Assembly: GCA_964196605.1 (NCBI GenBank)
Contig: CAXMUQ010000247.1
Coordinates: forward strand, 1-32,702
From: an uncultured Acidimicrobiia bacterium
GTDB lineage: Bacteria; Gemmatimonadota; Gemmatimonadetes; Gemmatimonadales; GWC2-71-9
Length of the DNA stretch: 32,702 bases
Direction of reading: 5' to 3'
Shown here: piece after piece, positions 13,862 through 16,672 of the stretch
How the letters are laid out: each line of letters opens with the position of its first letter
Position numbering within the stretch: position 1 is the stretch's first letter
Made by a program: the position numbers and the translations under genes
The notes under the pieces: generated by a model
The model's input: only the letters and a program-made list of their open reading frames with translations
Database searches by the model: none
What the model was told of the DNA's origin: nothing

Positions 13862-14329
13862 ATGCCACAGCCGATCTATGTTTGCGAGGCCACCATCCGC
13901 CGCTGGGAGGGCCCGAACCGGACGGTACGTCTCCCGGGGGCCTCCGAGGACATTTCCTTTGGGGTTCATGGGGCCATCGCCCAACACTACGGGCTCGACT
14001 CGATGGATGGACATCGACCGAACGCGACGACGATCGACTACGTCATTGCGGCGGCGGGTGGCTGACTCACCGGCACTTTTGCTGGCGCGCTGGAAGCGCG
14101 CGGGATTTCTCTGGGGCCGGAAGACATATACGGGGACGTGCGCGGTGAGGTCGAGTTGGATGACGGGGTATTGGTGATCAAGCGGATTCACGTTGCCTAC
14201 CGACTCAGGGTGGCGGAAGAACACCGCGTGGTTGCCGAGCGGGTGTTAGGCGTTCACGCCGACAAGTGTCCGGTCGCGAGGAGTATTGCAGGGGCGATCG
14301 GGATTACGACGGGGATCGAGTACCTGTAG
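13862..14329 (+). CDS. OsmC/Ohr-family peroxidase-like protein with an in-frame TGA (14063..14065) at the catalytic-Cys position; candidate selenoprotein (155 codons including the TGA)
   Basis: ORF-track pieces 13862..14065 and 14138..14329 share one frame, and I translated the gap by hand. The result is ...NATTIDYVIAAAGG[TGA]LTGTFAGALEARGISLGPEDIYGDVRGEVELDDGVLVIKRIHVAYRL...HADKCPVARSI.... This mirrors E. coli OsmC NPEELIGAAHAAC(59)FSMAL... and ...KAGC(125)PVSQ. It would be a pseudogene if the TGA is not recoded. Confidence 0.7.
14085..14101 (+). promoter_or_regulatory. SECIS-like hairpin downstream of the OsmC-family TGA
   Basis: GCGCGC (14085..14090), loop UGGAA (14091..14095), GCGCGC (14096..14101). 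The stem starts 19 nt after the UGA. A possible outer helix pairs CCGGC (14070..14074) with GCCGG (14116..14120). Folded by eye only. Confidence 0.4.
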
Positions 14330-14362
14330 GTGCGTACTACGCACGTCGCACAACGCACATGC

Positions 14363-16045
14363 TCACGTTCGAACGAGTTTCTTGAACTTGATTCGGTGCG
14401 GCTGGTTGATGTCGATGCCGGTTCGGCGTTTATGGTCGGCGGCGTAGTCCTGGAAGTTTCCCTCGAACCACACCACCTGACTGTCGCCCTCGAAAGCGAG
14501 GATGTGGGTGGCGATGCGGTCGAGGAACCACCGGTCGTGACTGATCACTACGGCGCACCCGGGGAATCGGAGGAGAGCGTCCTCGAGAGCGCGGAGGGTA
14601 TCGACGTCCAGGTCGTTGGTGGGTTCGTCGAGCAAGAGGAGGTTGCCGCCGCTCATTAGGAGTTGGGCCAGGTGAAGCCGGTTGCGCTCGCCGCCGGACA
14701 GGTCGCCAACCAGCTTTTGCTGGTCGGAGCCGCGGAAGTTGAACCCGGCGCAATAGGCCCTGGTATTGACGGTGCGGTTTCCAACCTTGATGGTTTCTTC
14801 CCCGCCTGAGATGGCCTGGTAGACGGTCGACTCGTCATCGAGGTCGGCACGCGACTGGTCGACGTAGGCGACCTTTACGGTGGACCCGACGGTCAAGGTT
14901 CCGTCGTCGGGTTGTTCTTCGCCGACGATCATGCGAAACAATGTTGTTTTCCCGGCGCCATTGGCACCGATCACGCCGACGATGCCGCCGGGTGGAAGAT
15001 CGAAACTCAGGCTCTCTATCAGGAGCTGGTCGCCATATCCCTTACGAAGGTTGCGGGCGGATACGACCTCGTTGCCGAGTCGTTCCGGCTGGGGAATGAG
15101 GATCTCTGCGGTGCCTTCAGTCTCTTGCTCCCCTTCGGCTACAAGAGCTTCGAAGGCGTTGATTCGAGCCTTGGCCTTGGCGTGGCGCGCCTTGGGGGTC
15201 ATGCGAATCCATTCGAGTTCCCGTTGAAGGGTCCGGCGACGGGCTCCGGCGTGTTTCTGCTCGGTGGCCAATCGACGTTCCTTCTGATCCAGCCATGAGG
15301 AGTAGTTCCCCTCCCAGGGAATTCCCGCGCCGCGATCGAGTTCCAGGATCCATCCGGCTACGTTGTCCAGGAAATAGCGGTCGTGGGTCACGGCGACCAC
15401 TGTGCCGGGGAACGTCTCCAGGTAGCGCTCCAGCCAGGCTACCGACTCGGCATCCAGGTGGTTGGTGGGTTCGTCCAACAGTAGCATGTCCGGTTGCTCC
15501 AGCAGGACGCGGCACAGGGCCACGCGCCGCTTCTCGCCGCCGGACAGGTGTGCTACTTCCGAGTCGCCCGGTGGCAAACGCAGGGCATCCATGGCGATGT
15601 CTATCGTCCTGTCGAGGTCCCAGGCTTCGGCGACATCGATGCGGGTCTGCAGCTCGCCCTGCTCGTCGAGCAGGGCTTGCATGACGTCATCCGACATCGG
15701 TTCGGCAAACCGTGCGCTCAGCGTTTCGAATTCGGTCAGCAGCCCGCGAGTGTTCGCCACGGCAAGTTCCACGTTCTGGCGGACGGTCTTGCCGGCATCC
15801 AACTCGGGTTCCTGCGGGAGGTAGCCGATGCTGATGCCCGATGCCGGACGGGCCTCGCCGATGAAATCGCTGTCCACGCCGGCCATGATGTTGAGGAGGG
15901 AACTCTTACCTGAACCGTTGGACCCCAGGACGCCGATCTTGGCCCCTGGGAAGAAGGCGAGGTAGATTCCCTTGAGGATTTCGCGCTTAGGTGGCACGAC
16001 CTTTCGCAGGTCGGCCATGGTAAAGACGTATTGATGTTTTGTCAT
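14363..16045 (-). CDS. ettA: ABC-F ATPase, energy-dependent translational throttle protein EttA
   Basis: The N-terminus MTKHQYVFTMADLRKVVPPKREILKGIYLAFFPGAKIGVLGSNGSGKSSLL closely parallels E. coli EttA. There are two ABC cassettes (two Walker A, two LSGGE signatures) and about 560 aa. I chose the ATG at 16045 over the ORF-track start at 16099. Confidence 0.93.
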   Translation of the reverse strand: MTKHQYVFTMADLRKVVPPKREILKGIYLAFFPGAKIGVLGSNGSGKSSLLNIMAGVDSDFIGEARPASGISIGYLPQEPELDAGKTVRQNVELAVANTRGLLTEFETLSARFAEPMSDDVMQALLDEQGELQTRIDVAEAWDLDRTIDIAMDALRLPPGDSEVAHLSGGEKRRVALCRVLLEQPDMLLLDEPTNHLDAESVAWLERYLETFPGTVVAVTHDRYFLDNVAGWILELDRGAGIPWEGNYSSWLDQKERRLATEQKHAGARRRTLQRELEWIRMTPKARHAKAKARINAFEALVAEGEQETEGTAEILIPQPERLGNEVVSARNLRKGYGDQLLIESLSFDLPPGGIVGVIGANGAGKTTLFRMIVGEEQPDDGTLTVGSTVKVAYVDQSRADLDDESTVYQAISGGEETIKVGNRTVNTRAYCAGFNFRGSDQQKLVGDLSGGERNRLHLAQLLMSGGNLLLLDEPTNDLDVDTLRALEDALLRFPGCAVVISHDRWFLDRIATHILAFEGDSQVVWFEGNFQDYAADHKRRTGIDINQPHRIKFKKLVRT

Positions 16046-16102
16046 GGGCGGGGAAGATACCACCGCCTGTGGTATGCAACCAACCCAAAACCGAGGCACG
16101 CA

Positions 16103-16672
16103 ATGCGAAGCTGGCTTGTCGTTCTGTTAGGCGTTGTGGCAGTGCTAGTCCCCCGGGCGGATCTGCCGGCCCAGGAAAACACTCCGCTAGACATAGAGGC
16201 GGAGGCTCCCACCTTTGCGCTTCCGGGGGCAACGGCTAAAGGAATCCTGCCGCATGACGTCAGCTTGGCCGACTTCAAAGGCAAGACGGTGGTTCTGGCC
16301 TTCTTCTACAAGGCCCGGACCAAGGGCTGAACTATCCAAATGCGCGCGTACCGTGATCAGTACGCGGAAATATTTGGAGAGCGGAATGACGTGGTGCTGC
16401 TGGCCATCAGCCGAGATAGCCCTGAAGCGTTGTCGTCGTGGGCCCAGGATGAGGGATTCGAGTTTCGCATGTTGAGTGACGCGGACGGCGCTGTGGGGAA
16501 GGCGTATGGGGCTGTGACCTCCGATGACAGGCTCGACAACCGGAATCTTTTCATTGTCGATGGGGAAGGGCTTGTCGCCCACCGGATGGTTCCCTTCCGA
16601 GAGGTAGATCCTACGGCCTACACCGACCTGGCTGATGCAATCCTGCAAGTGGCTGGTGCGCCAGCTGACTAG
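16103..16672 (+). CDS. Secreted AhpC/TSA (BCP-like) peroxiredoxin with an in-frame TGA (16328..16330) at the peroxidatic-Cys position; candidate selenoprotein
   Basis: ORF-track pieces 16031..16330 and 16340..16672 are in the same frame. Read-through gives ...FKGKTVVLAFFYKARTKG[TGA]TIQMRAYRDQYAEIFGERNDVVLLAISRDSPEALSSWAQDEGFEFRMLSDADGAVGKAYGA.... This aligns by eye with E. coli BCP RVLVYFYPKAMTPGC(45)TVQACGLRD...VLGISTD...FTLLSD...FGV, so T-x-x-[TGA]-T-x-Q corresponds to T-x-x-C-T-x-Q. The start is the ATG at 16103, with signal-like MRSWLVVLLGVVAVLV. Confidence 0.75.
16345..16366 (+). promoter_or_regulatory. SECIS-like hairpin downstream of the peroxiredoxin TGA
   Basis: CGCGUAC (16345..16351) pairs with GUACGCG (16360..16366), giving 7 bp around the 8-nt loop CGUGAUCA. 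The stem starts 14 nt after the UGA. Folded by eye only. Confidence 0.4.

Follow-up and report, generated by a model that had tools for sequence, protein, structure and literature searches.

Two protein-coding genes of a Gemmatimonadota genome, one OsmC-like and the other encoding a thioredoxin-fold peroxiredoxin (Prx), are very probably intact selenoprotein genes in which an in-frame UGA would be read as selenocysteine (Sec, U). Both lie on contig CAXMUQ010000247.1, which was analyzed over positions 1 to 32,702 (32.7 kb, 62% G+C; hereafter, the window). Sec decoding of the two TGAs had been proposed in a first-pass annotation of this DNA. The proposal is now supported by the alignment of both codons with Cys, the conservation of TGA in orthologues, selection acting on the downstream halves, conservation of downstream hairpins at synonymous sites, and the use of TGA as the ordinary stop in 14 of the window's 26 genes.

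In-frame TGA codons at redox-active positions

The two genes and their candidate Sec codons are the following.

13862-14329, plus strand: OsmC-like gene, predicted selenoprotein (ATG at 13862, TAG at 14329; 155 codons, U68), assigned from its translation, Pfam, and homologues and orthologues
14063-14065, plus strand: TGA predicted to be read as Sec, codon 68 of the OsmC-like gene; aligned with Cys and conserved in 82/82 loci
16103-16672, plus strand: Prx gene, predicted selenoprotein (ATG at 16103, TAG at 16672; 189 codons, U76, no Cys)
16328-16330, plus strand: TGA predicted to be read as Sec, codon 76 of the Prx gene (TxxU); aligned with Cys in homologues and conserved in 9/9 distinct close orthologues

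Each open reading frame (ORF) contains one in-frame TGA only, in the contexts ...AAAGG-U-LTGTF... (OsmC-like) and ...FFYKARTKG-U-TIQM... (Prx). The OsmC-like product matched the Pfam OsmC family (PF02566) with an E value of 4e-11 and 43.6 bits (gathering cut-off, 27.5), and the Prx matched AhpC-TSA (PF00578) with an E value of 1.4e-28 and 99.8 bits (gathering score, 26). The earlier claim that a single TGA occupies the redox-active position in each of these folds was borne out, as codons 68 and 76 align with the catalytic Cys. Specifically, full-length OsmC-like homologues read GGCLTGTF where the window encodes GG-TGA-LTGTF, and U68 aligns with the first catalytic Cys of Thermus thermophilus OsmC (1ukk). 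Gemmatimonadota Prx homologues carry RTxGCTIQM at the position of RTKG-TGA-TIQM in the window, and T73, U76, and R147 align with T42, the peroxidatic C45, and the catalytic Arg of Mycobacterium tuberculosis AhpE (1xvw).

TGA was found at codon 68 in all 82 OsmC-like loci compared, i.e., the window, the relative L003, and the 80 best loci retrieved when metagenomes were scanned with the OsmC alignment (L-numbers denote loci of relatives and P-numbers public protein records). All 82 share the motif U-[LM]-x-G-T, which is U-L-T-G-T in the window. Codon 76 of the Prx gene was TGA in 9/9 distinct Gemmatimonadota loci, including three named metagenome-assembled genomes (MAGs; L006, L007, and L008), one of which is just 55% identical and still has TGA. 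Orthologues of either gene showed no further stops or frameshifts. Synonymous divergence (dS) 3′ of the TGAs reached 0.8 to 2.7, and the ratio of nonsynonymous to synonymous divergence (dN/dS) in the same portions was 0.13 to 0.22 for the OsmC-like gene and 0.07 to 0.35 for the Prx gene (0.07 to 0.15 in five of six comparisons). Because dN/dS is low at such dS values and no other disruptions occur, the downstream halves of both genes are, on these comparative grounds, translated. The window genes that end with TGA include ettA and thrC. Gene-by-gene inspection revealed no internal stop in the other 24 window genes, and a scan for TGA-containing ORFs based on G+C content at third codon positions was not discriminating.

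Hairpins downstream of the TGA codons

A hairpin at similar spacing after each TGA had also been predicted, and such folds were found in both genes. They resemble Sec insertion sequence (SECIS) elements.

14084-14102, plus strand: SECIS-like hairpin in the OsmC-like gene, with a 7-bp core stem at 14085-14101, GCGCGCU-GGA-AGCGCGC, and loop GGA
16345-16366, plus strand: SECIS-like hairpin of the Prx gene, CGCGUAC-CGUGAUCA-GUACGCG; 7-bp stem and 8-nt loop CGUGAUCA

The hairpins begin 14 to 19 nt past the UGA, and their loops begin 26 nt (OsmC) and 21 nt (Prx) past it; both loops fall within the distance of about 16 to 37 nt from the UGA expected under the bSECISearch model. The apical loop of each hairpin contains a G. 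A loop with a G just 3′ of the UGA is in keeping with how SECIS elements of bacteria are generally described (PMC1088965). A shared SECIS consensus, envisaged along with the prediction, did not emerge, since the two hairpins have no common primary sequence beyond the loop G and the spacing. Following the established bacterial pathway, each hairpin would act during translation as a SECIS element that recruits SelB.GTP.Sec-tRNA(Sec), upon which the UGA would be read, in a presumably SelB-dependent manner, as Sec and not as a stop.

The significance of the hairpins comes from comparative data and not from single-sequence folds, which were only modestly better than those of shuffles (z of −1.8 for OsmC and −2.9 for Prx). 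The OsmC hairpin overlaps the codons for G-A-L-E-A-R and is almost identical in sequence over several phyla. Standard pairs filled 90.5% of the pair cells when 76 distinct sequences were compared, and one locus showed a compensatory G-C to A-U change at the price of an Ala-to-Val replacement. Third-position entropy at four-fold sites was 0.18 to 0.53 bit in the stem versus 1.65 to 1.94 bit at flanking sites, and the stem codons were nearly fixed (GGC in 69/76, GCG in 73/76, CTG in 72/76, and GCG in 73/76 sequences). Elsewhere in the same genes, GCG accounts for 34% of Ala codons and GGC for 39% of Gly codons. When the hairpin codons were recoded synonymously, with codons drawn at the usage frequencies of those genes, 3% of the recoded sequences matched the observed stability. 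Judging from codon usage elsewhere and this control, codon bias does not account for the conservation of these sites. The OsmC hairpin was picked up as terminator-like by a consensus scan, a reading rejected on account of its location within a conserved reading frame.

The Prx hairpin was nucleotide-identical in 8/8 distinct TGA forms with a complete region, with varying flanking codons; L008 was left out of this count since its contig ends inside the hairpin. In three Cys forms, a similar peptide (xYRDxY) is encoded by different codons that do not allow the hairpin to fold (−0.7 to −3.5 versus −10.8 kcal/mol). Synonymous recoding reached the observed stability in 5% of the trials.

Alternative readings of the TGA codons

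Decay of both genes by nonsense mutation of the Cys codon (TGC/TGT to TGA) would need a single base change, and public annotation indeed calls fragments only, e.g., an 87- to 95-aa "OsmC family protein" and a 108- to 111-aa "peroxiredoxin". Nonetheless, the same TGA persists in every one of the 82 and 9 diverged orthologues, and the downstream portions combine dN/dS values of 0.07 to 0.35 at near-saturated dS with zero extra stops or frameshifts. The first-pass annotation had named frameshifts in relatives as the mark of pseudogenes; their absence contradicts this interpretation, to which we assign next to no probability. An assembly error was rejected as the source of the TGAs. Reassignment of TGA to Trp or Gly (translation table 4 or 25) could account for the W found at the site in 47 of the 120 best OsmC-like database matches. 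However, these W forms are 96 to 98% identical to loci with a TGA codon, which fits table-4 gene calling on short contigs, and the residue aligned in homologues is Cys, neither Trp nor Gly. Because TGA terminates 14 of 26 window genes, all of them well supported, the genetic code is not reassigned, and the chance that it is appears negligible. Read-through without the Sec pathway, by near-cognate tRNA-Trp or tRNA-Cys, would yield small amounts of a Cys or Trp protein, with the hairpin slowing the ribosome or the release factor. Since a Cys-form homologue keeps the OsmC hairpin, a role of this structure other than SelB binding is conceivable. Against such read-through, the hairpins match bacterial SECIS elements in where they lie, in their size, in the G of the apical loop, and in being conserved throughout each family, both families are recognized selenoproteins in Sec-utilizing bacteria, and the Prx hairpin is gone in Cys forms, as expected if recoding is its sole role. 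We consider this mode of decoding quite improbable.

Some observations weigh against Sec decoding itself. Neither selA, selB, and selD nor a tRNA-Sec gene was found within the 32.7-kb window (Pfam on large ORFs, ARAGORN, and Rfam). No Rfam model matched the hairpins, either over the whole window at the gathering threshold or over 13700-19800 at E≤1; coverage of bacterial SECIS elements in Rfam is, however, poor. The hairpins vary so little that there is hardly any covariation proper. In the PxxxTxxC motif of peroxiredoxins, Pro gives way to Tyr in this clade (Y69 in the window; F in L168); most Cys homologues have Pro here and one has Tyr. Furthermore, a Cys-form (TGT) OsmC homologue, L175, retains the same hairpin, which is thus not strictly tied to TGA in this family. 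This gene (L175:501-974; Pyrinomonadaceae MAG, JBJMGP010000060.1) carries the full hairpin, GGCGCGCUGGAGGCGCGCC, at −20 kcal/mol, and is most simply read as bearing a "fossil SECIS" that outlasted a recent change from Sec to Cys. The hairpin is missing from another, more distant OsmC Cys form. The class-V aminotransferase encoded at 10511-11815, a weak match to SufS-type enzymes, was not treated as Sec-related.

The OsmC-like protein

Two further features belong to the OsmC-like gene.

14267-14269, plus strand: codon of Cys136, the candidate resolving residue in the OsmC-like protein, located by alignments that include 1ukk
13817-13822, plus strand: TATAAT, a −10-like hexamer upstream of the gene, read directly from the sequence

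Cys136 aligns with the second active-site Cys (CPVSR) of OsmC 1ukk and is invariant in both homologue alignments. An AlphaFold2 model of the Cys homologue P0023 (pLDDT of 83; 53% identical to the window protein) gave OsmC/Ohr structures only as top Foldseek matches. Relatives are named "uncharacterized OsmC-like protein" by JGI, and the window protein belongs to the poorly characterized COG1765 branch. The organic hydroperoxide reductases of the OsmC/Ohr type (1ukk, 1nye, and 1usp) share with it the fold and the two-Cys active-site positions; in contrast, sequence similarity is marginal (E value of 1e-3) and the window protein falls into a different subfamily. In an active site of the OsmC/Ohr type, U68 would serve as the peroxidatic and Cys136 as the resolving residue, and the protein probably reduces hydroperoxides, or another oxidized substrate, via a selenenylsulfide intermediate. 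The label "peroxidase" given earlier to both products holds well for the Prx, whose T73, U76, and R147 match the catalytic residues of AhpE, but for the OsmC-like protein it amounts to a presumed activity.

An OsmC-like selenoprotein (COG1765/YhfA; PF02566) was predicted in the Sargasso Sea metagenome (PMC1088965). Like the known OsmC-like selenoproteins, the window protein combines the OsmC fold, Sec at the first conserved Cys, a retained second Cys, a hairpin with a loop G, and the existence of Cys homologues. It differs in its Gemmatimonadota host and apparently in the motif, published as UxxT; in the window, U-L-T-G-T places T at +2 and +4.

The TATAAT that had been reported about 40 nt upstream of the ATG was located as described, ending 39 nt ahead of it. 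A consensus scan detected no −35 match beside the hexamer. The sequence GCGTAGTATAA(T/C) is kept at equal distance from the ATG in L003, the sole relative with the OsmC-like gene. The listed ORF of the neighboring carbon-nitrogen hydrolase (12913-13863, minus strand) overlaps both the OsmC-like start and the TATAAT. Because its Pfam match begins at residue 31 and relatives are 296 to 301 aa long, the true hydrolase start is probably the ATG at 13806, which would leave a divergent intergenic region of 55 bp.

The peroxiredoxin

The N terminus of the Prx bears an additional feature.

16103-16174, plus strand: hydrophobic, signal-peptide-like segment, Prx residues 1-24, recognized by hydropathy and in homologues

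Sec-containing Prx (TxxU, COG1225/PF00578) and OsmC-like proteins (COG1765) were catalogued as bacterial selenoproteins by Zhang, Fomenko, and Gladyshev in 2005 (PMC1088965). Both families also appear in reviews (PMC9312934 and PMC13188914), the latter of which lists the Sec-Prx family with a primary reference. The window Prx resembles the catalogued Sec-Prx proteins in its thioredoxin fold, the replacement of the peroxidatic Cys by Sec in T-x-x-U, the catalytic Arg, and the hairpin just downstream. In contrast, it has Tyr for the motif Pro, no Cys, a signal-peptide-like N terminus, and a Gemmatimonadota host. The primary reference for the family presumably concerns PrxU of Eubacterium acidaminophilum. 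Scores fell below the curated NCBIfam cut-offs for both PrxU (NF040737; 56.3 versus 270) and BCP (NF006960; 67.7 versus 140). By these profile scores, the window protein is assigned to a distinct Prx subfamily, equivalent to neither the PrxU nor the BCP equivalog.

Among proteins of solved structure, M. tuberculosis AhpE and BCP are the best matches to it. AhpE, a 1-Cys Prx (1xvw; E value of 2e-12), is the closest of known structure; T, the peroxidatic residue, and Arg align, and each protein has one redox residue. Unlike the window Prx, AhpE is cytoplasmic and uses Cys, and identity between the two is low. Because the protein contains zero Cys, it would work as a 1-Sec enzyme. U76, with T73 and R147 as its activating residues, would be oxidized by peroxide to the selenenic acid and then re-reduced by an external thiol partner.

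Hydropathy at the N terminus peaks at 3.45 (Kyte-Doolittle) over residues 6-16. In homologues this region is variable yet hydrophobic and ends in AQ or AQA; the Prx domain itself begins near residue 32. A Cys-form Gemmatimonadota homologue (L172:3573-4588) adjoins two genes, one TlpA-like with a thioredoxin fold and one DsbD_TM/CcdA-like, which hint that this Prx family may draw on a reducing pathway outside the cytoplasm. Together, the hydrophobic N terminus and the location of this homologue suggest that the Prx works outside the cytoplasm.

Gene neighborhood

Between the two predicted selenoprotein genes lies a third gene, on the opposite strand.

14363-16045, minus strand: ettA, ABC-F translational throttle protein; matches to TIGR03719 and NF008775

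EttA scored 927.6 bits against TIGR03719 (cut-off, 806.75), with residues 5-557 covered, and 925 bits against NF008775; the gene is 74 to 96% identical among syntenic relatives. The closest named relative is the Gemmatimonadota MAG L006, whose EttA is 96% identical and whose Prx is 79% identical over its full length. The three genes alternate in strand: OsmC-like (plus), ettA (minus), and Prx (plus). The carbon-nitrogen hydrolase gene lies upstream of the OsmC-like gene and is divergent from it, and a convergent threonine synthase gene (thrC) follows the Prx gene. Since each is thus flanked by one divergent and one convergent minus-strand gene, the OsmC-like and Prx genes are necessarily monocistronic. 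Coordinates and flanking strands therefore agree with the earlier description of two monocistronic plus-strand units on either side of ettA.

The order ettA (minus), Prx (plus), thrC (minus), thrB (minus) is kept in L001, L003, and L006, and L166 and L169, both partial contigs, show nothing that departs from it as far as they reach. L007 keeps this order loosely, as does L170 with a Cys-form Prx. Because the latter sits in the same gene order, Sec and Cys forms of the Prx are, judging from synteny, found at an orthologous locus. The OsmC-like gene lies between the hydrolase gene and ettA in the window and L003 only. An additional gene, for an amidohydrolase, stands between it and ettA in L003, and in L001, which has ettA and the Sec form of the Prx (Prx-U), it is absent. 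Conservation of the neighborhood in relatives, raised as a question with the initial prediction, is hence partial: the ettA-Prx-thrC order is kept, whereas the OsmC-like gene shares it in L003 and not in L001.

A functional, co-regulated peroxide-defense module made up of ettA, Prx-U, and the Sec form of the OsmC-like gene (OsmC-U) would explain why the three also occur together in L003. In other phyla, moreover, a selenoprotein gene of another thioredoxin-fold kind (Prx-like, UxxC) occurs no more than 3 kb away in 5 of the 80 OsmC-U loci, directly downstream in three cases. Such a module is nevertheless unlikely, given the three separate transcription units on alternating strands, the retention of ettA and Prx-U without an OsmC gene in L001, and the interposed amidohydrolase gene in L003. 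The ettA-Prx-thrC-thrB order also occurs with the Cys-form Prx of L170, so it predates Sec use and is independent of it. Because the genes form separate units and the OsmC-like gene is missing from the syntenic L001, gene order identifies the adjacency of the two predicted selenoprotein genes as a lineage-specific accident of synteny and not an operon.

The second TGA genes next to OsmC-U were located at L114:3753, L124:2688, L127:1720, L104:405, and L139:412. They encode the Prx-like motif FxRGxW-U-P-Y/F-C, and the three directly downstream are on the same strand, suggesting a same-strand pair of OsmC-like and Prx-like selenoprotein genes in other organisms. Clustering of the neighborhoods of the 80 OsmC-U loci disclosed no dominant conserved neighbor, raw ORFs being swamped by spurious high-GC ORFs.

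Two noncoding stretches of the neighborhood were also recorded. On the minus strand, directly 5′ of the ettA start (16046-16068), the block GGGCGGGGAAGATACCACCGCC recurs in L006 and, in more variable form, in L001, L003, and L166; it holds an inverted repeat, the fold of which is no better than those of shuffles (z of −1.2). No convincing ORF and no Rfam match was found in the 840-bp stretch at 18895-19733, which separates pntAA from the GHMP-kinase (thrB-like) gene. In L001 and L003 this position is occupied by DUF2062 and DUF748 genes, and L006 has a similar gap with blocks 70 to 91% identical to the window.

Annotation and significance

Many GenBank, JGI, and ENA entries (P0079-P0119, P0121-P0143, and others) are C-terminal fragments starting just after the TGA. 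They span Chloroflexota, Actinomycetota, Desulfobacterota, Acidobacteriota, Dormibacterota, and Gemmatimonadota. Among the 120 best OsmC-like database matches, at least 32 are C-terminal fragments, besides the 47 with W at the Sec site, which most simply reflect table-4 gene calling on short contigs. Fragment and W entries together amount to systematic misannotation of both families. Recognition of the two TGAs as probable Sec codons corrects records that give fragment pairs or truncated products of ∼90 to 110 aa named "OsmC family protein" or "peroxiredoxin".

Both genes are new members of known selenoprotein families, in a Gemmatimonadota genome. They reveal no new mechanism and no new family; the finding is ordinary for specialists, and its main practical value lies in fixing a widespread annotation error. 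It also provides comparative sets for two bacterial SECIS elements, i.e., 76 distinct OsmC-like sequences and, for Prx, Sec and Cys forms at an orthologous locus. Literature searches returned no description of Sec use in Gemmatimonadota, and the two genes mark this lineage as a probable Sec user. More tentatively, and with somewhat less than even confidence, a selenium-dependent peroxide defense of this lineage may extend over two compartments, with a Cys-free 1-Sec Prx of the Y/F-xxx-T-xx-U type exported by means of a Sec-type signal peptide and an OsmC-like selenoprotein acting in the cytoplasm.

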